The position numbers and the translations under genes were made by a program. From Ktedonobacteria bacterium (GTDB lineage: Bacteria; Chloroflexota; Ktedonobacteria; Ktedonobacterales; JACDGC01), in NCBI GenBank assembly GCA_027459705.1, contig DAIDHM010000072.1, positions 1 to 56,082 of the forward strand: a stretch of DNA of 56,082 nucleotides, read 5' to 3'. The notes beneath the pieces are model-generated. The model did not search any database. It was not told the DNA's origin and worked only from the letters and a program-made list of their open reading frames with translations. Below, piece by piece: positions 3,475 through 49,920 of the stretch (position 1 is its first letter; each line of letters starts with the position of its first letter).

Positions 3475-6400
3475 ATGCCGCGGATGGTGACAGACCGGGC
3501 GAACGTATTGGGACCAGTATCCATCTTGGTCAGTACGGAGTTGCAGCGCAAATTGAAGGCTGCCCTATCGCCGCTGGCACCTGATCTGGCTGGGATGTTA
3601 GCGGTACTGAACACGCAGCGTGGTGTCCCCGTTCTGGTGGAAGAGGTCGTCCAGCATCACCCACATTTCCTCTTTGGCGCTGGCCCACTCTGTCTGGTAG
3701 CGCAACCCGCTGGGGAAGCGGCATCTTTCACCACAACTGAGTTGCGTCCTCTGAAATTGCCCGAACAGCACCGCTTCGCCCGCGAGGCCCTCTGGGTCCA
3801 TGCTGCGGACTGGCAGATCGCGGATCCACGCGAAGCACTCCCGCTCCGCGAGGCCCAGAAGGCCGTCACCACGCTCCTCGAGATGTGGCGGCAGGCGTCG
3901 GCACCGGATCGGAACCGATCTACCCAGCACCCTGGCCACCAGGCGACGGCAATCCCCCCTATCGCGACACATGAGCGGTATCTGGAACGCCTCGATGGGT
4001 TAATCTCACTCTCGCGTCGTCTGGAACAAGATCGACTTCTGGAGACAGTAGGTGGCGCATCATTCGCATATCTGACGGCGGAGCCCGAACCCGAGCTACA
4101 TCGCTGGCTCTTGATCTGCGCGCCAGAGGCCCCACGTCCGAGGATCCGCGATCGAGTGCGCTTGCGTGATGCCCCAACCTTGCGTGGGGTGATCGTTGGT
4201 CAAACACGCCAGGGGGTAATCGTTGAATTTTCCGCAGGTCAGGCCCTGACCGTCGCAGACATCCCCACACCAGGTTGGCTGGAATTATTACCCTCCGTCG
4301 CCCAGTTCAACATACAACGCGAGGCAGTGGCGACCCTCCGCGCTGGCGGGTCCAGTAATCCACATCTGCTGGACATTTTTGTCGATCATCGCTATCAGCC
4401 ACTGCGGAAAGCACATAAAGGCGCAGATTCACCGGTCGATCTCGATCCAGACCAACTTGCCGCCTGGAAGGCGGCTCAGACGATTCCCGATGCATTGCTC
4501 GTTCTGGGTCCACCAGGCACCGGCAAAACGCATACGATCGCCCATATCACCAGCACGATGGCGGCGCGCGGGCAACGCATCTTGATAACCGCGCGCACGC
4601 ATCGCGCGGTCGATAACGCCCTTGAACGACTGAGCGCAATACCTGGGCTGAGGATTATCCGCGCGGGCCAGAGCGACCGCGTGGCTCCAGGTTTGCGCCA
4701 TCTCTTATTAGACGCCCAGACTCACGCGACCCGCGCGACAATTCTGGAGCGCGTGGACGAATCATTACGTCGCATGTCGCAGGCATTGGCTCATCTGGAG
4801 GCCGCCAAGCCGGTCGCGACAGCAGATGACTCAGACGCCGAGGTCGCCACCATCGCCGCGCGCATTCGTTCAACCGAGGTCGCGCTCCTGGCGGCACAAA
4901 CAGAGATAGATCGTCGCTATGGCATTCCCCAGCGTTTGTGGGAGACAGAGCTGGCGGACGAAATCGATCACCTTCGGACTACCGATGCCGCGCTCGCGGA
5001 TCTCGCGGCTCTCCAGGCCGATCTCCATGCGCGCCGCGCACGACCCTTCATCGGGCTCTGGTGGGCCATTGCCGAGGCACGAGTGGCACGACGCCTGCGG
5101 CGCGATCAGCAACGACGATCGCGGCACTCGCAGGCGTTGCTCGACCGCGCTCAGGAATATTTTGCCGTGCGCGCGCAACATGCGGCGGCATTACAACATC
5201 CCGATCTGGCTGAGTTCGCTCAGTCACTGGCAGATGATCGTGCGCTGTTAGCGCAACGTACGGGCGATCAACGATCCTGGTTGGGTGACATGGATGCTGT
5301 GCTGGCTCCGATTAGCAGCGACCGACCGGAATGGGATCCTGCGCGCGGTGGCGATATCCGAACCTATCAGGTCTGGGCGCATGATCTCATCCCCGTGTTG
5401 CGTCAGCGTCTGGCCATCATGCGGACATGGCGGAGCGCGGTGGCGGAGGATGCCGATACCCTGGTGCCGTTGCTGATCGAGAACGCTGATGTCGTCGGCG
5501 CGACCTGTATTGGCATCGCCACGACTCGCGATCTCCCAGATGAAGAATTCGATCTGGTGATTGCCGATGAAGCCGGCCAGATTGGGCTGGTGGATCTGTT
5601 GGTACCGCTCGTGCGGGCACGCCGCGCGATCCTGGTCGGCGACCATCAACAATTGCCGCCCTTCGTCGCAGATGAGATCCAACAATGGCTCACCGAGCAC
5701 ACTGGTGTGATTGCGGATGATCTCTTACGGGCCGTTGGCGATCTGCTCACCAAGAGCGCCTTTGAATTGCTGTTTCCGCGCGCTGAACCCAACCACCGCG
5801 TCTTGCTGACCCAGCAGAAACGCATGCCGCGGGTCATCGCCGATTTTCTCGCGACGCAATTCTATGGCAATCAGTTGCGATCGCCAATCGAAACAGATCC
5901 ACCAGCGACCTCTCCAGTATTAGCAGCGCCGCTGACGCTGGTCGATACCAGCGATCGTCCGCGGCCTGCCCGCGCCGAGAGTGTTGTGGGTGGTCAGGAT
6001 GCCAGCGATGCGCATGGGTATCGCAATGAGATCGAAGCTGCGTTGGTGGCCGATCTCGTCGACGCTTATGCCGGTCGCAAACTGGATTGGGTAGTCATCA
6101 CTCCCTATCAGGCACAGGCCGAGCGGGTGCGCGAACTCCTGCGGCAACGACTGCCAAACCTTTCCCTGGCGGAACTCCTCGAACGCGTGGCGACCGTCGA
6201 TTCCTTCCAGGGTGGCGAACGTGATTACGTCTTCTTCAGTTTCACGCGCTCCAATGCCAACGGCAATGTCGGGTTCCTGCGTGAACTGCGGCGGTTGAAT
6301 GTGACGATGTCGCGCTCCCGGCGGCAATTGATCTTAGTCGGTGATTTCCCTGGTCTCTGTGCGGCCAATGACGCAGGTTTTCAGCGTTTGGCGCGCGCGT

Positions 6401-6489
6401 TAGTCGACTATGTGCAACAACATGGCGAACGAGTGCGTTCGACCGAAGTTCCGGCACGGATCGCCGCATTGAGGGAGATGGCGCGGTGA
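3475..6489 (+). CDS. Superfamily 1B (Upf1/DNA2/NAM7-like, AAA_11 + AAA_12) helicase with ~330-aa N-terminal domain of unknown function
   Basis: Walker A 'LVLGPPGTGKTHTIAHI', Walker B 'LVIADEAGQI', motif III 'GDHQQLPP', motif IV 'QQKRMPRVIADF', motif V/VI 'VDSFQGGERDYVFFSFTRSN...MSRSRRQLILVGD'. The ATG at 3484 (MVTDR...) has better SD spacing than 3475, so the true start may be 3484. Confidence 0.85.
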   Translation: MPRMVTDRANVLGPVSILVSTELQRKLKAALSPLAPDLAGMLAVLNTQRGVPVLVEEVVQHHPHFLFGAGPLCLVAQPAGEAASFTTTELRPLKLPEQHRFAREALWVHAADWQIADPREALPLREAQKAVTTLLEMWRQASAPDRNRSTQHPGHQATAIPPIATHERYLERLDGLISLSRRLEQDRLLETVGGASFAYLTAEPEPELHRWLLICAPEAPRPRIRDRVRLRDAPTLRGVIVGQTRQGVIVEFSAGQALTVADIPTPGWLELLPSVAQFNIQREAVATLRAGGSSNPHLLDIFVDHRYQPLRKAHKGADSPVDLDPDQLAAWKAAQTIPDALLVLGPPGTGKTHTIAHITSTMAARGQRILITARTHRAVDNALERLSAIPGLRIIRAGQSDRVAPGLRHLLLDAQTHATRATILERVDESLRRMSQALAHLEAAKPVATADDSDAEVATIAARIRSTEVALLAAQTEIDRRYGIPQRLWETELADEIDHLRTTDAALADLAALQADLHARRARPFIGLWWAIAEARVARRLRRDQQRRSRHSQALLDRAQEYFAVRAQHAAALQHPDLAEFAQSLADDRALLAQRTGDQRSWLGDMDAVLAPISSDRPEWDPARGGDIRTYQVWAHDLIPVLRQRLAIMRTWRSAVAEDADTLVPLLIENADVVGATCIGIATTRDLPDEEFDLVIADEAGQIGLVDLLVPLVRARRAILVGDHQQLPPFVADEIQQWLTEHTGVIADDLLRAVGDLLTKSAFELLFPRAEPNHRVLLTQQKRMPRVIADFLATQFYGNQLRSPIETDPPATSPVLAAPLTLVDTSDRPRPARAESVVGGQDASDAHGYRNEIEAALVADLVDAYAGRKLDWVVITPYQAQAERVRELLRQRLPNLSLAELLERVATVDSFQGGERDYVFFSFTRSNANGNVGFLRELRRLNVTMSRSRRQLILVGDFPGLCAANDAGFQRLARALVDYVQQHGERVRSTEVPARIAALREMAR

Positions 6490-7751
6490 CCTTCGGACCA
6501 AACGAGAACGATTACCTCCTCCCCTACAGCCCTCTGACGGCGCTGGATCGGCTCGATGAAGCGGGCAATGGACAACCGCTCTATCTGTGGCGGCTACTCT
6601 ATCCAGTCTGGATCGTCGAGATTCCTGGCACGCGCATCGTCCGGCGCGATCTTGCGCCGTTCGAAGCAACCATCCTCCACGCGGTCCGCGAAGGCGGCGC
6701 GCAAACGACAGCGGATCTGGCCGCCATGCTCGGTATCGATGCTGATCTGCTCGATCGCGTACTCCTGGTGCAACAGCGCATTGGGCATCTCGGCCGTGAT
6801 AGCGCGGGACGACTGACAATGGGACGATTGGGCGCAAACTCGTTGCGCGACGGTGTCAGTTATCGTCGCGAGGAAGGCGCCAATGGCACGATGATCTTTG
6901 ACGCCTTTACACAAACCCCACTGCCCGATATGTATGGCCCCGAGATGCTGATAACCACGGACCAGCTGGATCAGCCAGCGGCGGCACGCTTCTTGATACC
7001 CCTCTGCGCGCGTCACTGGGATAATGCCGCATTGCGACCGGTCATCACGTCCCGAACGCTCCCCGAAGTCACCCCCCGCGCCGCATACCTCCCACTCTAT
7101 CTGGTCGAGACAACCGGTCCAAAAAATAGCGTGGCGTGCACCGCCACCCCTGACCGTATCGATACCACGCTGTCCACGATCATCGCCACTGCGAAGAAAC
7201 AGGACGCATTTCTTGCCGCGGCGCTGACCTACGATATTGCCGTTGCACGCGCCACCGCCAGTGCCTGGCTGACGCAGCGCGGTTTGTTGACCGCGTCTGT
7301 CACCCGCACAGCAGGCGGGGAATGGCGCGCCGAGTTGCCGCCCGATCTGCTCAAGCGTGGGCAGGGTGGCATGTCATTAGCGCGTTTGGGAACATATGAA
7401 TTGATCCAAGACCCGGCTGGCGGCGTAGTCTGCCTGCGCATCTGGTGCGCGGATCGCACCATGCGACATGCGGCGGCGGAAGCTCAGGTCAAAGCCCAAC
7501 AGGCTCGCCGACCTCAGACAGGCGCCGCCGGAGCCGGTGCGCACTCATCATCACCACTCGCCGAAACCACTTTCTCGACAATGCTGGCGCGACGTCTCAT
7601 CAGTCTCGAAGCTACGAACGATTCTCTGCCACATCCGCAGGGTCCGGTGCCTCCAGATAGCCTGGTGCCGCCGCCGAATAGTCCGGTTCCACAACCATCA
7701 CCGTCAGCGCCTGCCATGCCTTCACGGCGGCGCAAGCCGGAGCGCAATTGA
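6486..7751 (+). CDS. Hypothetical protein, translationally coupled to the helicase; N-terminal winged-HTH-like segment, Pro-rich C-terminus
   Basis: GTG start overlaps the helicase stop (GTGA). Long ORF with no in-frame ATG nearby. 'TTADLAAMLGIDADLLDRVLLVQQRIGHL' resembles an HTH. The C-terminal 60 aa are Pro/Ser-rich. No homology recognised by eye. Confidence 0.55.
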   Translation: MTFGPNENDYLLPYSPLTALDRLDEAGNGQPLYLWRLLYPVWIVEIPGTRIVRRDLAPFEATILHAVREGGAQTTADLAAMLGIDADLLDRVLLVQQRIGHLGRDSAGRLTMGRLGANSLRDGVSYRREEGANGTMIFDAFTQTPLPDMYGPEMLITTDQLDQPAAARFLIPLCARHWDNAALRPVITSRTLPEVTPRAAYLPLYLVETTGPKNSVACTATPDRIDTTLSTIIATAKKQDAFLAAALTYDIAVARATASAWLTQRGLLTASVTRTAGGEWRAELPPDLLKRGQGGMSLARLGTYELIQDPAGGVVCLRIWCADRTMRHAAAEAQVKAQQARRPQTGAAGAGAHSSSPLAETTFSTMLARRLISLEATNDSLPHPQGPVPPDSLVPPPNSPVPQPSPSAPAMPSRRRKPERN

Positions 7752-7819: not shown

Positions 7820-9208
7820 TTAACTGCCGATACTGGGAGTGTAATTGAAATCACTGAACGTGACCGTTCCGGCGCCAGCCGAACCAGCAAACATGACGAG
7901 GTCCAGATAACTGGTTGTTGAGTAGGTCGCATCGTTTGCTTGCCCAACATCGCGTCCATTGATGCGCATCGTCAGGGTCTGTTCGCGCATGATCGCCGCT
8001 ACCTGGTAGCTGGACGCGAGGGGTACTATGCCACTCTGGAGCGTCGTAGCCACTCCATTCTCCGCAGCAAAGCGCGCGATATACCACTCTCCCGTCTGCC
8101 CACACAGAAAAAACCCGTAGCGCCCCCCATCGTCCTGGACTCGCGTGAAGAACCCCGCACAGCCTCCGTTAAGTTGCGACACATCGATCGTCGCAGCCAC
8201 CAGGTAATTTGTTGGAAAATCGCCCACTTCACCGTAGAATCGCACCGTGCTCATAGCACTGGCTTGGGGAGACTGCGATATGCGCAACCCTGTTGGGGAG
8301 CAACTGAACTGAGTCAATGCGCCTACCCTGGCTGGCGCTGGCCAGAAAGCGCCACCTTGATCGCAGCCAGGCCCGGGAACAGGCGCGCTATAGGTGGGTG
8401 TGCCGACACCACCACTGGCAGTTGGGGTTGACGCGCTATTCCCCAGGGCGGTTCCAGCTGCTGAAGAGCCTGGTGTTACAGTGACTTCCGTCGCAACGCC
8501 CAGCGGCTGGTAGGTAAAATGATCAAAGAGCGCGGTCGTCGGTTGACCTACATCGCGCGCTACGAGAGCAATGCTGCTGGTCGTCAAATAAGTAGGGTCA
8601 GCCGTGCTACCCAGCAGTGTCCCATTCAAGGAGAGCGTGATAATTGGCCCATTCACCTCAACGGTAAGCTGTGGGTTTGTGGGCATTTGGGCCACCATCC
8701 CAATCGCCAGTCGCTGAGTCTTGCCCGCACTCGTGAAGCGTGTGATCATCCACATGCCATTGCGCGCAATCTCAAGGATTTGGCCGCCTCGCGGTGTCTG
8801 GCGATGCACTTCGATGCCAACGCTGGCAGTAGGCGAGCCAGCAGTGATCCGCGCGTCAACCGTCACACGGTAACGCGCGTCAAACCGCCCACCTCCCGGT
8901 GTCGCATAAAAGACTTCTGCATAGCGACCATCTGTTGCGCCAGCATCTAATTGCATCCCTTCAGTTGTACAGGACACGGTTGCCTGTGCGTCTGTCGCGA
9001 GAAACCAGTTGCCGCCATGATCCACGCAATGGGGGCCTGGCACCCCAATTGAGTACGCGGTATCCTTGTAGCTTGTCGACGGCTTTAACGTCACCGCGAT
9101 CGCCGCAACCGCGACGATCACAATGATGATCGTCGCGCCCAGTAACAGCACCGCCGTCGGCGATAATGTTTTCCGTCCCATGTTCCCCACAATCCAACGC
9201 TGCGGCAT
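7820..9208 (-). CDS. Membrane-anchored or secreted protein with two tandem copies of an unknown ~150-aa beta-rich domain
   Basis: N-terminal hydrophobic anchor 'AVLLLGATIIIVIVAVAAIAV'. Two internally similar halves ('...RFYGEVGDFPTNYLVAA...DGGRYGFF...' and '...RYAEVFYATPGGGRFDARYRV...'). Function unknown. Confidence 0.55.
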   Translation of the reverse strand: MPQRWIVGNMGRKTLSPTAVLLLGATIIIVIVAVAAIAVTLKPSTSYKDTAYSIGVPGPHCVDHGGNWFLATDAQATVSCTTEGMQLDAGATDGRYAEVFYATPGGGRFDARYRVTVDARITAGSPTASVGIEVHRQTPRGGQILEIARNGMWMITRFTSAGKTQRLAIGMVAQMPTNPQLTVEVNGPIITLSLNGTLLGSTADPTYLTTSSIALVARDVGQPTTALFDHFTYQPLGVATEVTVTPGSSAAGTALGNSASTPTASGGVGTPTYSAPVPGPGCDQGGAFWPAPARVGALTQFSCSPTGLRISQSPQASAMSTVRFYGEVGDFPTNYLVAATIDVSQLNGGCAGFFTRVQDDGGRYGFFLCGQTGEWYIARFAAENGVATTLQSGIVPLASSYQVAAIMREQTLTMRINGRDVGQANDATYSTTSYLDLVMFAGSAGAGTVTFSDFNYTPSIGS

Positions 9209-9452: not shown

Positions 9453-11264
9453 TTACGGTGTAGCAGTTGGCTTAGGGACTGTTGGTGTAGCCGTCACCCC
9501 TGTCCCCACCGACGTCGCTGTCGGAACTATAGTGGGGGTGGCAGTAGGTTGCAGTGTGGATATCGTTGGGGTGGCCGTCGCCTGCGGGGTCGCAGTGGGC
9601 ACAGAGACCGGGCCGATGCTTACATAGACCGTGACAATCGTATTTGGGGAGACCTGGTCACCAATCTGAGGCGAGGTCTTCACGACCAGGCCAACCGGTA
9701 CCGCCTGGTCATTGATCGGGCTGGTAACACAGACTAAGTTCCCCGGATTGCCCGCGCTATCCTGCGCGGCTTTGATCGCGGCGCACGCTTGATCGGCAGT
9801 GAGATTAGCCACTGCTGGGATTGTCACCGTATTAGGGCCGATCCCAACATAGACATTGACACTTCCCCCGGGGGCCAGCGCCGTCCCAGCCGCAGGATCC
9901 TGTCGTAGAATGAGTCCAATCTGCGCCTTGGTACTGGTCGTATCATGCTGGACCAGATGGATATTATCCGTCTGCGCGAGCTGAACGGCATCTGGCTGAT
10001 ACATCTTGTTGGTAAAATCAGGTACAGTGATCGTCTGTGGAGTCGATGTACTCGAGGTTGAGGAGCCAAAGGGATTGATAAATTTATAGGTCACGAAGCA
10101 CCCAACCGCCAACAAGAGCAAGACTGAGGCGACAATAATTGCGGTAGTAATCCCTGCGACCGGCGCGGGTGTATCCTCTTCACCAAGCGCGGGAACGGGC
10201 ATGACACCCGCTGCCACATCCGGTCTGGTCGGACCTGGCATAATAAAATCTTCACTCAACGCGCGCGGGTCTTCCCAACTACTGGGGGTATCCGCACGTG
10301 GGCGTGCACCACTCGGTCCACGTCCACTTGTAGATTGCAGCGCGCCAGAGGGCGTGCCGCGGAACGCTCCCCCATTGGGAGGCATCTCGCCTGGTGGCAT
10401 ATCCAGCGGAGTGGCCATACGTCCAGAGTTCGTACGCGGCCTATCAAACGACTCTAATGCATAGGCCAGCGCATCGCCATCGCGATATCGATCGCGCGGA
10501 TCTTTTTCCAGACAGCGCATGATCACGCGTTCCAGCCCTGGAGGAATCGCCGGATTATAGCGGCTGGGGCGGATCGGCACCTCTTGAATATGTCGGACGG
10601 CGATTGAGACGGGGGTATCACCATCGAATGGTGGATGTCCAACGAGCATCTCGTAGAGCACAATACCCAGGGCATACACATCGGCGGCGGGAGTGACCAC
10701 TTCGCCCTGAGCCTGCTCTGGCGCGTAATATTGCACGGTACCCAGAGTCATGCCTGTGGTGGTCAGGCGTTCTGAATTGACATCACGGTAGAACGTCGCG
10801 ATGCCAAAGTCCGTCAGCTTCACCAGCCCTTCATCGTTGACCAGGATATTTTGCGGTTTGACATCACGATGGACGATGCCGCGCCGATGGGCGGCGCCCA
10901 GCGCCAGGGCGACGTCATGGCCAATGACGACCGCGCGTCGAATATCCAGAATACCATTGGCGCGCAGATATTTGCGGAGATCAACGCCTTCGATTAACTC
11001 CATAACGATGAAATATTCTTCACCACTCTGGCCATAGTCGAAGACTTGCACTATATTTGGATGTGCCAACGCCGAGACAGCGCGAGCTTCGCGCTGAAAG
11101 CGCAAAACAAACTTGGGATCGTTGGAATACATCTCACGGAGAATCTTCACCGCAACGGGGCGACCCATACGACGATCCTGCGCGCGAAAGATGGTTGCCA
11201 TACCGCCACGACCGATTGGTTCGATGAGCTCGTAGCGGTCTCCCAAGACTTTTATATCATCCAT
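9453..11264 (-). CDS. pknB: Ser/Thr protein kinase, PknB-like: Hanks kinase domain, TM segment, extracellular PASTA repeats, Thr/Pro-rich tail
   Basis: 'IGRGGMATIFRA...VAVKIL', catalytic loop 'HRDVKPQNIL', 'DFG', 'APE'. Followed by a TM helix 'ITTAIIVASVLLLLAVGCFV', two PASTA-like units and a 'TATPQATATPTIS...' tail. Confidence 0.9.
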   Translation of the reverse strand: MDDIKVLGDRYELIEPIGRGGMATIFRAQDRRMGRPVAVKILREMYSNDPKFVLRFQREARAVSALAHPNIVQVFDYGQSGEEYFIVMELIEGVDLRKYLRANGILDIRRAVVIGHDVALALGAAHRRGIVHRDVKPQNILVNDEGLVKLTDFGIATFYRDVNSERLTTTGMTLGTVQYYAPEQAQGEVVTPAADVYALGIVLYEMLVGHPPFDGDTPVSIAVRHIQEVPIRPSRYNPAIPPGLERVIMRCLEKDPRDRYRDGDALAYALESFDRPRTNSGRMATPLDMPPGEMPPNGGAFRGTPSGALQSTSGRGPSGARPRADTPSSWEDPRALSEDFIMPGPTRPDVAAGVMPVPALGEEDTPAPVAGITTAIIVASVLLLLAVGCFVTYKFINPFGSSTSSTSTPQTITVPDFTNKMYQPDAVQLAQTDNIHLVQHDTTSTKAQIGLILRQDPAAGTALAPGGSVNVYVGIGPNTVTIPAVANLTADQACAAIKAAQDSAGNPGNLVCVTSPINDQAVPVGLVVKTSPQIGDQVSPNTIVTVYVSIGPVSVPTATPQATATPTISTLQPTATPTIVPTATSVGTGVTATPTVPKPTATP

Positions 11265-11760: not shown

Positions 11761-14049
11761 TCATTGCCGATAGACCTGTTTGCTAGCCAGGTAGTCGACG
11801 AGAAGATAGCGGCCCAGATCATCCGGTGTTGTAATGAACGCTCGGCCTTTATTGATCGCTGACATCTCCTGCACAAATTCGATCAAAGACGCATCGTGCA
11901 CCAACATGAAGGTGTTGATTCGGATGTTATCTTTCGTACAGCGATTGACCTCCAGTAAAGTTTGCTCCTGGGCCAAATCGGTGTACGGATAAGTAAAGAG
12001 CCAGCGCTCCGTCTCCTTGTCCCACATCACTGTCGGTCCGCCATCCGTCACCATGATCACCTGGCGATTGACCCCTTTGTGCTTATTCAGCAGTTGGCGC
12101 GCGAGCATCAGCCCATGCACCATATTCGTCCCCTGCGCATGGTCCATCTCGCTGATCTCGACCAACTCATCGCGTTTGAACTCGCGCGCCAGCGCCGAGA
12201 AACCTACGACGTACAAGTTGTCGCGGGGAAACTGGCCACGGATCAGGGACTCCAATGCCACAGCAACCTTTTTGGCTGATTGGTACGCCCCACTGTAAAA
12301 CATTGACATCGACATATCGATCATCAGGACAGTGGAAGATGCGGTCATCATTTCTGTACGATAGACTTCGAAATCCTCCGCTTGCAACTGGACGGGGGAT
12401 CCAGAACCCTGTCGCTCAATCGCGTGCATCAGCGTTCCATGAAGATCCAGCAAGAAGGGATCGCCAAAATCATAGGATTTCGTCTCATCGGTCTTCTCGC
12501 CACCAATACCGCGTTGCTCCATCGCATGTTGTCCAAATGCGTCGCGGTCCAACTGGTCGAACATATCGCGCAACGCCTTCTGGCCAACCTTGCGGATACC
12601 GGCGGAGGTTAACTGCCAGCGGTTGCCTTTGCGAGTGATATAACCAGCATCCTCGAGTTCTTTGAGCATCTGCTTCAACTCGTCGACCGCGGCGCCCTCT
12701 TCCTGGCCCAACAGGTTCCGTACAGCATCAGCATCGACCCCATCCATGTTTCCCTGGCGGCGGGCGGCGTTCATCTGGGATTCCAGTTCATCCAATCCCT
12801 GGAGCTCACCCATCAAGCGCATAGCCTCAGTCAGTGACACCGACTCATCGCCTTGCATGCGAAATCTGGTTTTGAAATCGTTCGGGCCTTGTTGAGCGAT
12901 ATGCTGGGAAAGTTCCGCCAGATCAACCCGCATACGGTCATCGCCGACCAACTGGTCCATCATTTCCTGCAATTGCTCGCGCTGTTCCTCGGACATCGAA
13001 TCCATGATGGCTTCCATTGCCGCCATGCGCCTCTGAAGATCCTCGATCAGGTCATCGAGCGTGTTGACATCATTGCCAAAGAAATCGCCATACTTCCGCA
13101 TGAAGTTGTCGAAGTCAGGCTCTTTCCCCGCTTCGCGATCGCGTAACATCTGATTCAGTTCGCGAATCATGTCGCGCATACGCGCCAGTTCTTCCGGCGA
13201 CATCTGCGAAAGTGCCTGTTGCATGCCCTGGAAATACTGCTGCATGACCTGCTGTTGCAACATCTGCAACAGTTCTTGGAATTCATCGCGCGCTTGGGGA
13301 TCCATGAAATCATACGATGAGAGTTCGCGGATCTGTCCCGCCGTATCTTTGGGGAGACTGTCGAGATACTCCTGCTTGCGCTGCGCGATCTGCTCTAATG
13401 CTCGACGCAACGCCTGACGGTCCAGTCCGTCGGGCATGTCATGTTGTTGCCCCTGTTGCCCTTGCTGGCTCTGCTGCCCGCCCTGACCTGGCTGACCTTG
13501 CTGACCTTGCTGCCCGCGCTGACCTGGCTGCCCTTGTTGGCTCTGCTGGCCCTGCTGCATTCGCTGGCCTGGCTGACCTTGCTGGCTCTGGGGATCCTGC
13601 TGGCTCTGGGGATCCTGCTGGCCTTGAGCATCCTGGTCTGGGGTTTCGGACGCGGATTCAGGCTTGGGTTGGTTGGTCTCATCGAGTCGCCGTTGGATGC
13701 CCTCGCGTTCGTGCTGTTTGATAGCATCCAGCTTCTGGCGTATATCATCCATCACGCCATTCAGATTATACCTTTGCATGCGCTGATTCTGTTGTGACCG
13801 CAGGCGCTCCATGATATCACGGAGGCCCATGACACGCTGACCATCGCGGCCCTGAAAGCCAAATTGCTGTAGACGTTGCAAGGCACTGCGCACATCGGTA
13901 TCGCGGAGGTAGTCGTCCGCCATGGCATTGAGGATATCGTCGGCATCCAGCCCTTCGATCTGCTGCGAGCCATCCCAGCGGGAATAACTATGGCGCCGAT
14001 TGAAGAAAAATCGTTTGAACATCTCGAACCCTTTCCGCCAGGAGAACAC
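11761..14049 (-). CDS. von Willebrand factor A (VWA) domain protein with long Gln/Gly/Pro-rich low-complexity linker; partner of the upstream ChlI-like ATPase
   Basis: C-terminal VWA with MIDAS 'DMSMSM...VVGFS...VTDGGPT'. The central ~75-aa 'QGQQDPQSQQGQPGQR...' segment is encoded by CAG/CTG-rich imperfect DNA repeats (13440-13640). This is the ChlD/CobT-style architecture, but without the N-terminal AAA module. Confidence 0.8.
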   Translation of the reverse strand: MFSWRKGFEMFKRFFFNRRHSYSRWDGSQQIEGLDADDILNAMADDYLRDTDVRSALQRLQQFGFQGRDGQRVMGLRDIMERLRSQQNQRMQRYNLNGVMDDIRQKLDAIKQHEREGIQRRLDETNQPKPESASETPDQDAQGQQDPQSQQDPQSQQGQPGQRMQQGQQSQQGQPGQRGQQGQQGQPGQGGQQSQQGQQGQQHDMPDGLDRQALRRALEQIAQRKQEYLDSLPKDTAGQIRELSSYDFMDPQARDEFQELLQMLQQQVMQQYFQGMQQALSQMSPEELARMRDMIRELNQMLRDREAGKEPDFDNFMRKYGDFFGNDVNTLDDLIEDLQRRMAAMEAIMDSMSEEQREQLQEMMDQLVGDDRMRVDLAELSQHIAQQGPNDFKTRFRMQGDESVSLTEAMRLMGELQGLDELESQMNAARRQGNMDGVDADAVRNLLGQEEGAAVDELKQMLKELEDAGYITRKGNRWQLTSAGIRKVGQKALRDMFDQLDRDAFGQHAMEQRGIGGEKTDETKSYDFGDPFLLDLHGTLMHAIERQGSGSPVQLQAEDFEVYRTEMMTASSTVLMIDMSMSMFYSGAYQSAKKVAVALESLIRGQFPRDNLYVVGFSALAREFKRDELVEISEMDHAQGTNMVHGLMLARQLLNKHKGVNRQVIMVTDGGPTVMWDKETERWLFTYPYTDLAQEQTLLEVNRCTKDNIRINTFMLVHDASLIEFVQEMSAINKGRAFITTPDDLGRYLLVDYLASKQVYRQ

Positions 14050-14115
14050 CGGAAAAACACGGGTGGGTGAAGGGCGTCGCTCCGACCTTCACCCGGTGTG
14101 GAGAAGCGCCGCGCC

Positions 14116-15525
14116 TCAGCGGTCGCGCCGGTAGCGGAAAGCCCCTTCACTGGTGTCTTTATTCAAGCGCTTCTTCAGATGCAGACCTTCCAGGATGAAT
14201 TCCACGGCGGATGCCACCGAAGCCGGGCTCCCATGACCTTTGAGCTTCGTGACCGCCGCCTCAAGTCCGCCAACTCGCGAGAGCTGCGTGACATATTCCA
14301 TCGACGGCTGCATATCAGCGGCGTGCACATTCATGCCTCGCTCGAAACCCGCGACCAATTGATCGAACTCCGGCTGATCGAAATAGCGATCGAAGACAAT
14401 GACGATCGACTGGTTGATGAGTTTCTGGATAATCTTATCTTCGCGCGCATCACCCAGGGTATCCATCTCAATCTTGCCAGCTGTGCTGGAGATGACCGCT
14501 GGCAGATCGCTCACGCGTGGCACTGCCGTGCGCTCCTTGAGCCGCAGAGCACGTCGAATCGCGTTGCTGGCGACATTCTCATAATTGGTGATTGAGATTC
14601 GGACACTGACCCCGGAACGCTGGCTGATGTCCGAACTCTTGCGCGCCTGATGTGTGATCTGGGCGATGATCTCTTTCATGAAGCGCGGATAGACCAGCTC
14701 AACACCATCAACGACTTGAGGCGCCGCCTCGGCTTCCATGATCGCGATCTCCTGATCGATCGCTTTGGGATAATGCGTGCGAATCTCCGAACCGATGCGG
14801 TCTTTCAACGGTGTAATGATACGACCGCGATTGGTGTAGTCTTCCGGGTTGGCGCTGGCGACAACAAAGACATCGATCGGCAGTCGGATTTTATACCCGC
14901 GGATCTGCACATCGCGCTCTTCCATGATGTTCAGGAGTCCGACCTGAATGCGCTCTGCCAGGTCAGGCAACTCATTCAGACAGAAGATACCGCGATGTGT
15001 CCGTGGCACCATGCCATAATGGATGGTCAATTCATCAGAGAGATAGCGTCCCTCAGCGACTTTGATGGGGTCCACCTCGCCGATCAGATCAGCGATGGTG
15101 ATATCGGGTGTGGCCAACTTCTCGCCATAGCGGCGATCCCGTGGAAGCCACGCAATCTCCACTTCATCGCCCTGCTCCGCGACTTTGGCACGGCAAGCGG
15201 CGCAGATCGGATGTAACGGATCATCATTGATCTCGCAGCCAGCGATCATGGGAATCTCTGGGTCCAGTAATTGCACCAGGCTACGCGCGATGCGGGTCTT
15301 CGCCTGGCCGCGCTCTCCCAGGAGAACGATATCTTGCCCGGAGAGGATGGCGTTTTCGATCTGCGGTATGACAGTCTCCTCATAGCCAACGACGCCAGGA
15401 AAGAGCTCCTGGCCGTCGCGGACGAGGCGTACGAGATTAGCGCGCATCTCTTCTTTGACAGTGCGCGACTGGTAGCCGCTCGCCCGTAAGGCACCAATAG
15501 TACGCGGTTGCGTGCTGGTTGCCAT
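14116..15525 (-). CDS. AAA+ ATPase, Mg-chelatase ChlI/BchI-like (MoxR-related)
   Basis: 'FPGVVGYEETVIPQIENAILSGQDIVLLGERGQAKT' parallels the ChlI N-terminus and Walker A. Walker B 'IFCLNELPD', sensor-1 'VVASANPEDY', Arg-finger region 'PLKDRIGSEI'. Confidence 0.75.
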   Translation of the reverse strand: MATSTQPRTIGALRASGYQSRTVKEEMRANLVRLVRDGQELFPGVVGYEETVIPQIENAILSGQDIVLLGERGQAKTRIARSLVQLLDPEIPMIAGCEINDDPLHPICAACRAKVAEQGDEVEIAWLPRDRRYGEKLATPDITIADLIGEVDPIKVAEGRYLSDELTIHYGMVPRTHRGIFCLNELPDLAERIQVGLLNIMEERDVQIRGYKIRLPIDVFVVASANPEDYTNRGRIITPLKDRIGSEIRTHYPKAIDQEIAIMEAEAAPQVVDGVELVYPRFMKEIIAQITHQARKSSDISQRSGVSVRISITNYENVASNAIRRALRLKERTAVPRVSDLPAVISSTAGKIEMDTLGDAREDKIIQKLINQSIVIVFDRYFDQPEFDQLVAGFERGMNVHAADMQPSMEYVTQLSRVGGLEAAVTKLKGHGSPASVASAVEFILEGLHLKKRLNKDTSEGAFRYRRDR

Positions 15526-43500: not shown

Positions 43501-43518
43501 GATCCCGTCATTCGGCTT

Positions 43519-43591
<73 letters not shown>

Positions 43592-43823
43592 CCCCACATT
43601 TGCGCGCCAGACCAACCTCGTCCCCCTCCCCATCGCAAACATCAAAACAATGTGTAGCCGTGTGCGTGGTGTATAATCGCTTTCCTCCCATCTCATTCAA
43701 TCTCCACCAGTCAAGGTTGTGCACTCGACCTGTTGCTGTGCTAGGATACACATAACTCATGACCGCACCGCAAGGCGGACACCATGGGCTGCAACGAGTG
43801 CTGTTGGGAGGATACAAGACCGC

Positions 43824-45326: not shown

Positions 45327-45436
45327 TTCAGCAATTGCAACATACTGTACTGTAGATATCGCTACGATGCACTTTGTTACGGCGCAGCGCAGCACTGAAA
45401 CATTCAGTGGGTGAGAGGGCAAAGGATGAAATTAGG

Positions 45437-46606
45437 ATGCGATTACTATTAGACGATTCAACCGAACCAGTCATCTACACGATTCAGGATGGGGCCATCT
45501 ATGCTCTGGACGCTCAAACAGGCGAATTACACTGGTCTGGTGATCGTGTAGGGTGGGACGCGTTGGTCGGATGCGCCAGCGCATCCATTGTCGTCCGACA
45601 ATCCTTTCAGTATCTGGCGGGCCTTGCAGCCGCAGATGGTACTGTGTTGTGGTCTGTCGAGGGCAACGCCGGCTATCAGATGGATGTGACGTCAGATGAT
45701 GTAGTGCTGGCACGTGGGGGATCGTATCAACAGCAGGGTTATATGGAAGCATTCGATGCACAGAATGGTACCCTGCTCTGGCGGCACGTATGGCCCAGCA
45801 CGCCTTTTGATGAAGCTCGTGACCAGGATGAAGATCGTCCAGTCTGGCATGGAGACACCTGTTACTATGTGGAACATGGGGATACGCTCGTTGCGATCGT
45901 TACAAGAACAGGAGAGGTGCGCTGGCGCTACCACCATCCCGCCGCGTTCACTGTTGACCCAGCAGTTGATGACGACTTCGTTATTATTGGAACAGCGGAC
46001 GAGTTCGTCCTTGCTTTTGCTGCGATAAATGGAGAGCTAACATGGCGATTCCCGATGGGTTTCGCTCATCCACCGACCACGCGTCCCCGTATCGGTTCGG
46101 GTCGCGTTCTGGTGGGTGCGGAACGCGTCGTGGTTGCTTTGGACGCACAAACCGGTCAGAGTCTCTGGCATGTGATCCCCGGAAAAGATCTGGATACGGA
46201 TGAACCTGTGTTTAACACCTTGAACGAATTTTTGGAGATCACCCCCGACCTTAGCTATATCGCATACCTGGCTTTTTCGGGCGACCCACATAGTGGAGGC
46301 GATCCTGATCTGTATTGTGAGGTCAGCGCATATGATGCAGTTGGACAACGCATCTGGCGCCATGTCAGCAGTCAGATCCTGTTCATGGGCAGAAGTCATG
46401 ATCGGTGCTATCTGTGGTTTGCGGAATATGATCGGGGTGAGGTGTGGGCCCTGTCGCCGACAGGACAGATCATCCAGACTGTACGATTACCTAGTTCTGC
46501 GTCTGTCTTAGTGTCGGAATCTGCTCTATTCGTGGCGTCAAGCGGGAACCTCATCGCTTATTCCTCGGATTTAACGGCACCATTGTGGCACACGCCAATC
46601 AGATAG
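45437..46606 (+). CDS. PQQ-like beta-propeller repeat protein
   Basis: Repeated 'AxDAxTGxxLW' units ('ALDAQTGELHW', 'AFDAQNGTLLW', 'ALDAQTGQSLW'). No signal peptide seen. Confidence 0.7.
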   Translation: MRLLLDDSTEPVIYTIQDGAIYALDAQTGELHWSGDRVGWDALVGCASASIVVRQSFQYLAGLAAADGTVLWSVEGNAGYQMDVTSDDVVLARGGSYQQQGYMEAFDAQNGTLLWRHVWPSTPFDEARDQDEDRPVWHGDTCYYVEHGDTLVAIVTRTGEVRWRYHHPAAFTVDPAVDDDFVIIGTADEFVLAFAAINGELTWRFPMGFAHPPTTRPRIGSGRVLVGAERVVVALDAQTGQSLWHVIPGKDLDTDEPVFNTLNEFLEITPDLSYIAYLAFSGDPHSGGDPDLYCEVSAYDAVGQRIWRHVSSQILFMGRSHDRCYLWFAEYDRGEVWALSPTGQIIQTVRLPSSASVLVSESALFVASSGNLIAYSSDLTAPLWHTPIR

Positions 46607-46672
46607 AAATTAAGGCTCTAGCCGCGCAAACCGCCATCCCATGAGGGTGAGCACCCAGGGCCTTTAGCCCTG

Positions 46673-46739
46673 GCATTAGCTGTCGAGACAGAAGGCTATT
46701 CGGCGTCAGAAGTTGCTGCCATCTGCAACGCGGCTGCTT
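46673..46739 (+). repeat. Direct repeat copy 1: 67-bp truncated duplicate of the 3' coding end of the downstream AAA+ gene
   Basis: 65/67 identical to 49705-49771. Translates to 'ALAVETEGYSASEVAAICNAAA*', against 'ALAVETEGYSAAEVAAICNAAAFRAA...' in the intact gene. Confidence 0.85.
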
Positions 46740-47193
46740 GATCATATCCGAAGTAATCTGTATTTTGCACAAGGTTGACTAGTAGTTGAAACGGAAAGGA
46801 TCGACCTTAAAAGTGGGTGGGTTGAACGGGATAAGCACGCTTCCAAGAAGGGTTCGGCACTAATCTGTTCGGTGGCTTGGGCCTGGAGCACCTGATTCAC
46901 CACAGTTTGCAGCACACTAGCCAAGGCAACTTCTTGTGTCAACTGGGATTGCAACTGCTCGGTTTCTTCGTTCAGATGAATCGTGGGCGGGCTTCTACTC
47001 CTACTTGGCGTTGTTCATTGCTACGAGCCTAGCAGTAGAGGCATCCCCATCTTGCGCAAATTACAGAACTTCTCGGACTCTATTTATGTATATTGCTATG
47101 AGAGTAAAATCAACTAGATCCGATCATAAATGTGTTGTATATTGTTCTTGGAGAAGTACTCCCAGGTTCTTTTTGTGTATTGGAGGTTGTGCC

Positions 47194-49920
47194 ATGATGA
47201 TCTCATTACAACAGCGATTGGCTACTGTCAGACAACGCATTGCTGCATTGCCCCCCCTTGAACCTACCAGGTATAGCCCGTATTTCCGAGGGGTAACGGC
47301 AATCGCTGCGGCAGCGTTTGTTTGGTATGTATTAAGATTGCTGCCCTATTATCCACTTGGGTGGCAAGCTTTACTCATGATCCTGGTGCTTGTCATCTGG
47401 TTTGTACGCCCTGTCACAGGGGAGCGCGTAGCGTTAACCGCTTTTATTTTGCCGGTGGCCTATAGCTTCCCTTACGGAGGACTGGGCTTAGCAATTGCAG
47501 TGGGAACCTTCTGGATCGCCTGGCTTCTGCCCCCATCTGGATTTCTCTGGATAGCCCTTGCCGTTCTCATTTATGCTTTTCCACCCCTTCTTCCCTTCAT
47601 TTTTGTGGTCCCACTCGCCCTGGCATTCGAAGGGCCTTCACAAGGAGGCTTCCTTGCTGGTCTTACCGCCTTTTTCCTAGAAATCTTGATGCTCATTGGT
47701 GGGCGGACTCATAGCACGATCTTAAGTGGGGGCAAATTGCTGGCACCATTGATTCATGTTCAGGCTAAGCCGATTGACTCGCTTATTGACTGGAAATGGC
47801 TACAGATCCTGGGTGATCCAAATTTGCGCGTACTTGGGTTTCTTGGCCGCATATTTATTCCATTTGTAGAAGATCCATTGTTGTTGGGACAGATTATTCT
47901 CTGGAGTGGTAGCACGGCTCTCGTCGCGATAATTCTGCGTAAGCCCTTTACAACCAGACTCCCGCGCAATGTACAGGCATTGGTGAGTGGCATGCTCTGC
48001 CTCTCGATTGGTCAGGTCACCCTAGCATCATTACTTGCCGAGAGTGGAGCGGATATCGGAACTATTGCGAGTACTGCGCTGATATCAGGGGTCATCGTCT
48101 TGATCTTCGCTCCAATTCTTGAAGTTGGAACGGTCGCACTGCATTCGCAAGGTCATTTTACATCTGCGACGGCATTGAATGCGAGTGAACAACATGCTCC
48201 CACGAGTACCAAGAGGACTGAATCAAAAGAGACTATCGCTGCACGTGAGATCCCAAATGATCAATGGAGTGATTTGGCTGGTATAGATGATATCAAGGAC
48301 GAACTCCAAGATGCCATTCACTCGCAATTCGATGAACGAACTCGCCAGATTCAAAAACGGATGGGAATACCTCCTATTCGAGGTATCCTGCTCTATGGAC
48401 CACCAGGGACAGGGAAAACCAAAATTGCTCGGGTCATCGCTCATGAAGCAAACGCGACATTCTATGCAGTGAGTGGTACGGAATTCACCAGTAAGTGGTT
48501 TGGTGAATCGGAAGCGAATTTGCGGCGCATCTTTGAAGAAGCACGTGCGCATCGCCCGGCAGTTCTGTTCTTCGATGAACTTGAGGCATTTTTACCACTT
48601 CGCAAAGACATGGCGCGATCTGACGCACCAGAGAAAGGGATTATCTCCACCTTCTTGGCCTATACTGATGGGGTCAGCGATATGGAGGGCGTCCTACTCG
48701 TCGCAGCGACGAACTACCCCAACCTCATTGATCCTGCTGCACTGCGTCCGGGACGTTTCGATAAAGTCATCTATATGAGTCCGCCGGATGCGACGCATCG
48801 AATCGCGATTTTGACACGATATCTCGCGCACCGCCCATTGGCTGAAGATGTTGATCTCGTAAAGCTCAGCGCGCGGATGGAACGCTTCACGGGCGCAGAT
48901 ATCGAACGTGTCTGTATTGAAGCATCGCGGCGTGCTTATGAACGCACCAAAGAGGGGAAATCAGAGACGTTGACCATGGAGGATCTCGAAATTGCTCTGG
49001 GGGGAACGAGACCATCGGTGACTATCCCGATGCTGCGCGAATATGAAGCATTAGCCGATCAATACGGAAGACGTTCGTCCAGGCCTGGCCATATCGATGT
49101 GATCGATCGTCCGGATTATCATTGGTATGACGTCGCAGGCCTTGATGAGGTGAAACGCGTATTACGCGAGGCAATCGAATTGCCGCTGGCGCATCCTGAG
49201 CTTTTTGCTCAGTATCGCGTGAGGCCACACAAGGGTGTTCTACTTTTTGGCCCTCCAGGCTGCGGCAAAACTTTCCTGGCCAAAGTTGTAGCAAGTGAGG
49301 CACATGCGAGCTTCTTACATGTACGTGGCCCCGAATTGTTGGAACGGTTTGTCGGAGCTTCTGAGGGGCAATTACGGAACCTGTTCATTCGGGCCCGCGA
49401 AAATGTTCCTTGCGTCCTTTTTTTTGACGAGCTCGACGCAATCGCGACTATCCGTGGTAGTAATGATAGTTCTCATACACAGATATTGACACAGTTCCTG
49501 ACGGAGATGGATGGGGTCGAGGAATTGAAAGGCGTGGTTGTCGTAGGGGCAACAAACCGGCCCGACGCCATTGATCCAGCCTTGTTACGTCCAGGCCGAT
49601 TTGATCGCATCCTGTACATTCCGCCGCCGGATCTTGCTGCGCGAGTAGCTTTGCTGAAACTTGAACTGGGCCAACGGCCTATCGCTGATGATCTTGATGT
49701 CGACGCATTAGCTGTCGAGACAGAAGGCTATTCGGCGGCAGAAGTTGCTGCCATCTGCAACGCGGCGGCTTTTCGAGCCGCGACAGATTCGCTCCTTGCG
49801 GGTGAGTCGCAACGCATCTCAATGACGATGCTCCGCGAACAAATTCAGCAAACTCCGAAATCCCTTACTGATGAGGTAATTGCACAATATCGCGAATTGC
49901 GGCAACGGATGCAGCGTTGA
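47194..49920 (+). CDS. Polytopic-membrane-anchored tandem AAA+ ATPase (CDC48/VAT-like D1+D2 modules); compositionally atypical
   Basis: N-terminal ~370 aa with about 8-10 TM helices. D1 has Walker A 'LLYGPPGTGKTKIA' and Walker B 'LFFDELEAF'. D2 has Walker A 'VLLFGPPGCGKTFLA' and Walker B 'LFFDELDAI', plus SRH 'ATNRPDAIDPALLRPGRFDR'. ATG 47194 has SD 'GGAGG' 7 nt upstream. GC is visibly lower (~50%) than in neighbouring genes. Confidence 0.85.
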   Translation: MMISLQQRLATVRQRIAALPPLEPTRYSPYFRGVTAIAAAAFVWYVLRLLPYYPLGWQALLMILVLVIWFVRPVTGERVALTAFILPVAYSFPYGGLGLAIAVGTFWIAWLLPPSGFLWIALAVLIYAFPPLLPFIFVVPLALAFEGPSQGGFLAGLTAFFLEILMLIGGRTHSTILSGGKLLAPLIHVQAKPIDSLIDWKWLQILGDPNLRVLGFLGRIFIPFVEDPLLLGQIILWSGSTALVAIILRKPFTTRLPRNVQALVSGMLCLSIGQVTLASLLAESGADIGTIASTALISGVIVLIFAPILEVGTVALHSQGHFTSATALNASEQHAPTSTKRTESKETIAAREIPNDQWSDLAGIDDIKDELQDAIHSQFDERTRQIQKRMGIPPIRGILLYGPPGTGKTKIARVIAHEANATFYAVSGTEFTSKWFGESEANLRRIFEEARAHRPAVLFFDELEAFLPLRKDMARSDAPEKGIISTFLAYTDGVSDMEGVLLVAATNYPNLIDPAALRPGRFDKVIYMSPPDATHRIAILTRYLAHRPLAEDVDLVKLSARMERFTGADIERVCIEASRRAYERTKEGKSETLTMEDLEIALGGTRPSVTIPMLREYEALADQYGRRSSRPGHIDVIDRPDYHWYDVAGLDEVKRVLREAIELPLAHPELFAQYRVRPHKGVLLFGPPGCGKTFLAKVVASEAHASFLHVRGPELLERFVGASEGQLRNLFIRARENVPCVLFFDELDAIATIRGSNDSSHTQILTQFLTEMDGVEELKGVVVVGATNRPDAIDPALLRPGRFDRILYIPPPDLAARVALLKLELGQRPIADDLDVDALAVETEGYSAAEVAAICNAAAFRAATDSLLAGESQRISMTMLREQIQQTPKSLTDEVIAQYRELRQRMQR
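49705..49771 (+). repeat. Direct repeat copy 2 (inside the AAA+ gene 3' end)
   Basis: See copy 1. Two T/G mismatches. Confidence 0.85.

Follow-up and report, generated by a model that had tools for sequence, protein, structure and literature searches.

What is a prokaryotic protein that carries ten predicted transmembrane (TM) helices in front of two AAA modules, and what might it do in the cell? The question is raised by a single gene in a 56,082-nucleotide (nt) stretch of contig DAIDHM010000072.1 (the window; forward strand, on whose numbering all window coordinates are given), which a first-pass annotation had picked out as a novel architecture in a compositionally foreign segment. Judged from its sequence, the encoded protein (P0001) belongs to a large, ancient and unnamed family of Bacteria and Archaea and is not an invention of this genome. 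It joins an undescribed membrane module to a Cdc48/VAT-like pair of AAA rings, D1 and D2. As for its function, we tentatively favor, with doubt slightly prevailing, a membrane-tethered Cdc48/VAT-type hexameric unfoldase that would draw proteins in or near the membrane into the cytoplasm, the membrane module selecting the substrates or gating the activity.

The longest open reading frame (ORF) of the flagged interval extends from 46936 to 49920 on the plus strand and would encode 994 amino acids (aa) from a GTG start. The alignments with homologues begin only at the Met-Met of 47194, not earlier, and this ATG is preceded by a GGAGG; we therefore took the gene as 47194–49920. The GTG at 46936 was rejected as the gene start, since the 86-codon extension has no counterpart in the homologues. 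The gene is intact and keeps every invariant residue of its family. Its leader had been described as 450 bp long; it measures 587 nt in full, of which 454 nt lie past the repeat arm described below. An Rfam scan of the leader gave zero matches, so that no riboswitch or other RNA element was found in it. No sigma-70-like promoter was found on its plus strand, and the promoter and terminator scans were uninformative.

The AAA portion is complete. In the Pfam scan, the 908-aa protein contains two AAA and two AAA_lid_3 domains (3.5e-80) and no other domain; no protease domain, Peptidase_M41 included, was found. Together with the motifs, this bears out the earlier description of two complete AAA modules lacking a protease. 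The Walker A motifs read GPPGTGKT at aa 402 in D1 and GPPGCGKT at aa 686 in D2. Among 57 homologues, neither ring shows any variation in Walker A, the DE of Walker B, the Asn of sensor 1 or the arginine fingers (RPGR). In the pore loops, the K-W-[YF]-G of D1 is near-invariant across the family, while most members have lost the aromatic residue of D2; this pattern marks the membrane-adjacent D1 as the ring whose grip is conserved. In the window protein itself both pore loops are aromatic (K-W-F-G in D1, F-V-G in D2). The D2 module terminates in a conserved L/M-Q-R: the window protein ends in R-M-Q-R, the family consensus is L-Q-R, and the terminal Arg is present in 55 of the 57 sequences.

The N-terminal part is a membrane domain. 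Overlapping hydrophobic segments span aa 33–319 in the Kyte-Doolittle analysis. AlphaFold2 places helices between aa 28 and 322, both when the N-terminal 351 aa are modeled alone (predicted local distance difference test (pLDDT) 84, predicted template modeling score (pTM) 0.80) and in the full-length model (pLDDT 87). Counting Lys and Arg per loop over the 57 homologues, the N-terminus and the loops 72–78, 146–150 and 250–258 are positive, and the loops 50–56, 92–95, 129–131 and 282–288 are not. The predictions fit ten TM helices, with the two ends of the domain on the cytoplasmic side and 60 residues (aa 169–228) looping outward, and they uphold the many-TM N-terminal domain foreseen in the first-pass annotation. 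The same orientation agrees with the domains that flank it in its relatives, which are cytoplasmic: FHA or kinase on the N-terminal side, AAA or cyclase on the C-terminal side.

The best-conserved motifs of the membrane domain, PVxSLLDFxW and FxPFxERP, sit in the predicted outward loop. Within the membrane, the conserved residues are mainly Pro, Gly and Trp together with one Gln (Q233), and no catalytic-looking constellation of conserved residues was seen in the domain. The first 345 aa gave zero matches to Pfam, NCBIfam and PDB sequences, even at E≤10, and a Foldseek search of the membrane domain against the PDB returned no significant match; a likeness of its first six helices to the S-components of ECF transporters is a lead only. 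The S-components, and likewise MreD, share no sequence similarity with the window protein, which has four extra TM helices and the 60-residue loop, and no EcfT- or EcfA-like gene adjoins the AAA gene in the window or in seven homologous loci. The membrane domain is an undescribed module. It is followed by a stretch (aa 321–348) with a pLDDT below 50 in the full-length model and a variable sequence in the homologue alignment. As modeled, such a disordered connection would argue for tethering and not for rigid allosteric coupling. The coordinates of these and the other features of the window are collected in Table 1.

Table 1. Features of the window, beginning with the AAA gene and its parts
Feature	Position	Strand	Remarks
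Gene for membrane-embedded Cdc48/VAT-like double-AAA ATPase (P0001)	47194–49920	+	ATG start, 908 aa
Shine-Dalgarno GGAGG	47182–47186	+	7 nt 5' of ATG 47194
Membrane domain, aa 1–319 (~320 aa)	47194–48150	+	10 predicted TM helices, N-in/C-in
TM1–6, aa 28–146	47275–47631	+	Probable ECF S-component-like six-helix core (predicted; lead only)
Loop L7, aa 169–228	47698–47877	+	Predicted extracytoplasmic; holds P-V-x-S-L-L-D-F-x-W and F-x-P-F-x-E-R-P
Tether between TM10 and D1, aa 320–355	48151–48258	+	Disordered, poorly conserved, ~28–35 residues
D1 AAA module	48259–48993	+	Walker A 48397–48420; pore loop K-W-F-G 48493–48504; Walker B 48562–48579; Arg fingers 48745–48756
D1-D2 linker	48994–49113	+	Family-specific motif MLREYEALADQYGRRS
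D2 AAA module	49114–49917	+	Walker A 49249–49272; pore loop F-V-G 49348–49356; Walker B 49414–49431; Arg fingers 49588–49599
Intergenic leader	46607–47193	+	GC 0.48
Upstream repeat arm	46673–46739	+	Orphan copy of a D2-lid coding fragment (ALAVETEGYSASEVAAICNAAA, followed by TGA); 455 nt 5' of ATG 47194
Downstream repeat arm	49705–49771	+	Within the coding sequence, D2 lid aa 838–860
BamB/PQQ-like beta-propeller gene	45374–46606	+	Pfam PQQ_2 1.4e-28; upstream orphan in the low-GC island
tRNA-Phe (GAA)	43518–43594	+	Two genes upstream of the atypical segment
SMC-like ORF	79–2910		
AAA_11/AAA_12 superfamily-1 helicase	3475–6489		
Two ORFs without a Pfam match	6486–7751 and 7820–9208		
PASTA-domain Ser/Thr kinase	9453–11264		

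The AAA rings place the protein next to Cdc48. Among solved structures its best matches are p97, plant CDC48A and Thermoplasma VAT, with E-values of 1e-131 to 1e-133 over both modules, and its best NCBIfam match is the CDC48 model TIGR01243. The score of 528.9 bits lies below the cut-off of 802.65 because the N-terminal domains of Cdc48 are missing. The window protein shares with VAT, Cdc48 and p97 the tandem classic-clade D1-D2 arrangement with its lids and motifs, and with VAT the aromatic residues in both pore loops. On the other hand, the CDC48_N (double-psi barrel) and CDC48_2 (beta-clam) domains of these enzymes are replaced here by the ten-TM domain, and neither PF02359 nor PF02933, the models of the Cdc48 N domains, has a match in the window protein. 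Most members of the family keep the aromatic residue in D1 and lose it in D2, the reverse of p97, and the HbYX C-terminus of archaeal VAT and Cdc48 occurs neither in the window protein nor in its family. With FtsH, it shares a classic AAA ring under the membrane whose pore entrance would point to the bilayer, and the AAA modules are similar in sequence. FtsH combines two TM helices and a single AAA module with an M41 protease, whereas the window protein has ten TM helices and a second AAA module but no protease; the FtsH model TIGR01241 scores 416.8 bits against a cut-off of 600. The protein is thus set apart from Cdc48 by its score, its N-terminus and its C-terminus, and from FtsH by the missing M41 domain and the second ring. 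Membership in the FtsH, PAN, CdvC, Mpa and Iet groups was ruled out, as the protein falls below the curated cut-offs or lacks the defining partner or domain.

Other comparisons concern function or domain order more than sequence. Msp1/ATAD1 and Bcs1 likewise place an AAA ring behind an N-terminal membrane anchor and work on membrane proteins (PMC7018516, PMC10567702), but these eukaryotic organellar proteins have only one TM helix and one ring each; the analogy drawn here is a functional one. The soluble bacterial proteins Cpa, ARC and Msm0858 are D1-D2 proteins of the Cdc48 lineage (PMC6017811). They differ from the window protein in being soluble and having globular N domains, and Cpa is actinobacterial and encoded in an operon; membrane-embedded Cdc48-like forms are not mentioned in PMC6017811. 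The closest named group is "MBA," membrane-bound archaeal (Sulfolobus) AAA proteins that PMC3493965, citing Serek-Heuberger et al. 2009, gives as a separate cluster; they may be related to the present family.

The full-length architecture is widespread. A search of 5.8 billion proteins retrieved ~85 clusters of full-length homologues of 865–991 aa, with 38–55% identity at 95–100% coverage, and where these are labeled at all the label is only "AAA family ATPase" or "transitional endoplasmic reticulum ATPase." The bacterial sources include Caldisericaceae, Ktedonobacterales, Nitrospiraceae, Humimicrobiaceae, Candidatus Hakubella, Elusimicrobiota and Verrucomicrobiia, and one subfamily has an additional N-terminal FHA domain. 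The members are recognized by the motifs LPYYPxxW, PVxSLLDFxW and FxPFxERP...QIxLW in the membrane domain and by ERFTGADI and MLREYExLADQYGRRS in D1-D2. In the window protein the membrane-domain motifs are directly followed by those of D1-D2, and a profile of the membrane-domain alignment retrieves the window protein and its homologues.

Scanning the GTDB species representatives with the family-specific motifs gave 80 loci. A D1-D2 ORF could be scored in 69 of them, and at least six hydrophobic segments precede D1-D2 in 59 of these. The polytopic loci are mostly archaeal (Micrarchaeota, Thermoplasmata, Bathyarchaeia and Methanobacteriota), with a few from Firmicutes. When the bacterial membrane domain was compared by hhalign with 36 archaeal N-terminal regions, the two matched at 98% probability (E 2e-13, 276 columns), including an LPYYP-like motif. 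The size and age that we ascribe to the family follow from this spread of homologues over bacterial phyla and archaeal loci with homologous membrane regions. A crude neighbor-joining tree leaves the monophyly of the bacterial and archaeal membrane-bearing clades without resolution.

The archaeal proteins vary around this plan. Those of loci L010–L081 are 870–1250 aa long (the L012 ORF has 1536 aa) and have 6–13 hydrophobic segments before D1-D2. Most are without the aromatic D2 pore-loop residue, and Y-G-x-R(K/G) is conserved at their C-termini. In the Thermoplasmata, 250–300 additional residues precede D1. At L058, from Sulfolobaceae archaeon RB850M, an ORF beginning at 7536 encodes 605 aa with one hydrophobic segment and then D1-D2; it groups with the archaeal polytopic clade in the tree and may correspond to the MBA group, from whose candidate member the window protein differs by its ten-TM domain.

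We found no entry in Pfam, NCBIfam or the PDB that describes the combination of this membrane domain with D1-D2. The full texts that we searched, which took in the Cpa paper, a Cdc48-family phylogeny and archaeal AAA surveys and left out the original MBA paper, do not describe a polytopic Cdc48-like prokaryotic protein. The architecture therefore stands as one that has no family name or description that we could find, as the first-pass annotation had supposed, but the rarity that this had implied is wrong: it occurs in many bacterial phyla and in archaea.

The gene appears to work by itself. No conserved partner gene is common to the seven homologous loci, and thus the AAA protein would act as a self-contained unit. 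In the window, its neighbors are the beta-propeller gene and a gene for a LivF-like ABC ATPase. The beta-propeller protein, whose nearest database relative is 25–28% identical, was rejected as a conserved partner, its gene being absent from the seven homologous loci.

The membrane domain, by contrast, has many partners within single polypeptides. The first-pass annotation had seen no substrate-adaptor or partner domain in the protein, which overlooks that the membrane domain is a conserved mobile module, fused elsewhere to cyclases, kinases, GGDEF and TIR domains. A search with a profile of the membrane domain only, among 1.84 billion proteins, gave 222 cluster representatives, 79 of them multidomain. 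Adenylate/guanylate cyclases are the partners in 38 of the 79, N-terminal Ser/Thr kinases in 13, AAA domains in 5, HEAT repeats in 5, TIR domains in 3 and GGDEF domains in 2. The HEAT-bearing P0157 also has a Schlafen/AlbA_2 domain, variants with STAND-like domains occur, and many other representatives are stand-alone proteins of ~300 aa. Such a spread is what one would predict for a sensor or input module embedded in the membrane, and the fusions imply that the domain is probably more than an anchor.

Several individual proteins illustrate this mobility. In P0141, P0143, P0122, P0145, P0165 and P0157, the ten-TM domain is N- or C-terminal in cyclases, kinases, GGDEF proteins and HEAT/Schlafen proteins. 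At L092 5001–8212 (P0121), the same membrane domain occurs in a protein whose AAA module is interrupted, after the Walker A region, by a TIR domain, and a patatin-like phospholipase gene lies 63 nt downstream on the same strand. Another patatin gene is convergent to the gene of the closest homologue (L001 10429–11277).

These partners bring up the possibility that the protein is a remodeler coupled to a sensor. A MASE-type input module would then perceive a small molecule or the state of the envelope, and D1-D2 as its output would unfold or disassemble a specific soluble regulator, in signaling and not in quality control. MASE-type sensor domains are likewise polytopic and recur in one polypeptide with cyclase, GGDEF or Ser/Thr kinase domains, as the counts given above show for the present module, and the FHA domain of one subfamily, which binds phosphopeptides, is in line with such a role, as are the conservation of the predicted outer loop and an S-component-like core, a lead only, that could bind a ligand. 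The module differs from the MASE domains, however, in matching no Pfam or NCBIfam model, and a double-AAA unfoldase would be an atypical output. The tether before D1 is disordered and poorly conserved, unlike the rigid signaling helices of transmembrane receptors; the homologous loci have no conserved target gene nearby; and the invariant aromatic D1 pore loop points to processive threading and not to a switch. We consider a sensor-coupled role unlikely on balance, though deserving of attention.

The TIR, Schlafen/AlbA_2-HEAT and STAND-like variants, and the patatin genes next to the TIR variant and the closest homologue, could instead indicate a component of defense or conflict, for example in abortive infection, where the AAA motor would respond to infection and the membrane domains would damage or gate the membrane. 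The gene stands alone, has a sporadic, transfer-prone distribution, and matches the PADLOC IetA models. However, these matches (239 bits) cover the AAA modules only and reflect generic AAA similarity, and the NCBIfam IteA model scores 235 against a cut-off of 510. There is no IetS-like subtilisin-like protease beside the AAA gene, so that the Iet pairing is missing, and no effector neighbor either. The window protein has no effector domain, its locus is flanked by metabolic and transport genes and not by a defense island, and the composition of the family is native in several genomes. A function in defense therefore appears improbable to us.

We return to the extraction or quality control of membrane proteins, which is plausible from the geometry of the protein. 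Classic-clade AAA proteins with intact arginine fingers are hexamers, and Cdc48/VAT-type enzymes thread their substrates from the N-domain face of D1 to D2. We infer that six subunits of the present protein would assemble into a cytoplasmic double ring, D1 stacked on D2, that six flexible tethers of ~35 residues connect to the membrane. As the membrane domain holds the position of the Cdc48 N domains, the mouth of D1 would have to face the bilayer, as in FtsH or Msp1, and with such an entrance the likeliest clients would be membrane-embedded or membrane-associated proteins. Threading would proceed from the membrane side to the cytoplasm, D1 to D2 by analogy with Cdc48/VAT, and the products would be freed for refolding or passed to separate cytosolic proteases. 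One TM helix would be enough for an anchor, yet a ten-TM module is conserved and mobile, implying a further role: with its S-component-like core (a lead only) and its conserved outward loop, the module would probably select the substrates or couple the motor to an envelope or small-molecule cue.

The opposite direction of transport is the subject of a third alternative, in which the motor would push polypeptides outward through a channel that the hexamer would build from its 60 TM helices, like Bcs1 or a secretion ATPase. A large polytopic ring above the AAA pore, if the hexamer forms as proposed, and the conservation of the outward-facing loop would suit such a machine for export or insertion. 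However, substrates of Cdc48/VAT enter at D1 and leave at D2, and since D1 is the membrane-proximal ring here, export would need reversed threading. Moreover, secretion-system genes lie near none of the homologous loci examined, and, save for Q233, the membrane domain is without conserved polar residues that could line a channel. Export thus seems very improbable.

Several observations also weigh against the extraction that we prefer. No substrate, protease partner or operon context pointing to quality control was found. The C-terminal sequences (L/M-Q-R) rule out HbYX-type docking to a proteasome. The pTM of the full-length monomer model is 0.51, leaving the arrangement of the domains uncertain. 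The membrane module is joined to partners typical of sensor domains (cyclases, kinases, GGDEF and TIR), and therefore the AAA cassette could be an output for signaling or defense and not a housekeeping dislocase.

How this copy came to be in the genome is a separate question, and the composition of the segment bears on it. The sliding GC content is 0.485–0.524 at 46.5–49.5 kb against 0.578 for the whole window; the segment is low in GC, as the first-pass annotation had claimed, against a background of ~58% and not of ~60%. The GC content at third codon positions (GC3) of the AAA gene is 0.472, ~3 standard deviations (sd) below the mean of 41 long ORFs (0.655, sd 0.062), which substantiates the atypical composition from which horizontal acquisition had been suspected. 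The low values run evenly through the gene (GC3 0.48–0.49 in its three parts), the beta-propeller gene has a GC3 of 0.518, and the dinucleotide-signature distance is ~2 sd above the mean in windows starting at 45.0–46.5 kb. The compositional anomaly thus spans ~45.4–49.9 kb. In two other genomes, the GC3 of the AAA gene is also below that of its neighbors (0.51 vs 0.69 at L001, 0.48 vs 0.75 at L086), while in four others it equals that of the neighbors and the family composition is native; this mixed pattern suggests repeated transfer of the family. The AAA gene, its leader and the neighboring orphan gene were probably acquired horizontally, and the acquisition of this copy from another organism looks recent.

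The direct repeat that had been described does exist: its arms, of 67 nt, are identical at 65 of 67 positions, and shuffled sequences gave 0 matches. It does not bracket the gene as supposed, since the second arm lies inside the coding sequence, 149 nt short of the stop codon, and the first is an orphan fragment of the D2-lid coding region. The upstream arm comprises 22 out-of-context codons, without a start codon and ending in TGA, and both edges of the repeat are sharp, with no flanking homology. The upstream arm is a probable scar of a duplication, deletion or recombination that involved the AAA gene; such a scar would fit a rearrangement, and we count it in favor of horizontal transfer. 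In one possible scenario, a tandem duplication ending at 49771 was followed by the deletion of most of the first copy, which would fit because the edges are sharp. The arms were rejected as att sites or element ends, as one of them lies within the coding sequence, the edges are sharp and the arm is copied coding sequence.

Some of the evidence runs counter to horizontal transfer. A search of 43–53 kb gave no ORF for an integrase or transposase, and no att site was found at the segment. The flank proteins are at most 69% identical to any database protein, and the nearest AAA homologues and the nearest relatives of the FMO-like flank are both from Ktedonobacterales. The value of 69% belongs to the best database relative of this flanking FMO-like protein, whose named matches are from Ktedonobacterales and Herpetosiphonaceae; with no closer relative of the flank, the source organism is a poorly sampled member of the Chloroflexota. 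As for the tRNA-Phe gene, no second or att-like partial copy of it was found in the window.

Elsewhere in the window, a second dip in GC content, to 0.51 at 11–12.5 kb, lies beside vWA and MoxR genes. At 11761–15525 on the minus strand, a vWA-domain protein of 762 aa, with a GC content at second codon positions of only 0.35, adjoins a MoxR/sigma-54-like AAA ATPase, and the two genes may form a vWA-MoxR module.

The possible significance of the family is best seen against eukaryotic membrane-protein quality control, in which Cdc48/p97 is the central extraction motor, recruited to the membrane by adaptors and, to our knowledge, always soluble. Prokaryotes are thought to use FtsH or membrane-bound Lon for the extraction of membrane proteins. 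Going beyond the reading that we prefer, and rather speculatively, the protein could be a single-polypeptide prokaryotic counterpart of the logic of Msp1 and of endoplasmic-reticulum-associated degradation, with six ten-TM modules as the recognition or exit site and the D1-D2 motor below. It would then be an ancient and so far overlooked dislocase of Bacteria and Archaea, abundant in Micrarchaeota and Thermoplasmata, whose module might also sense a ligand or the envelope and so license extraction; we regard this fuller picture as doubtful.

For the present genome, the AAA gene would merely be one horizontally acquired member of the family. The membrane module that it shares with signaling proteins such as cyclases, kinases, GGDEF and TIR proteins merits a family definition of its own. 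If the protein is indeed a dislocase, the widespread prokaryotic combination of a Cdc48/VAT ring with a polytopic module would represent a distinct, self-contained and possibly signal-gated solution to the extraction of membrane proteins, and, as many archaea carry the family, it would have a bearing on how Cdc48-based extraction evolved.

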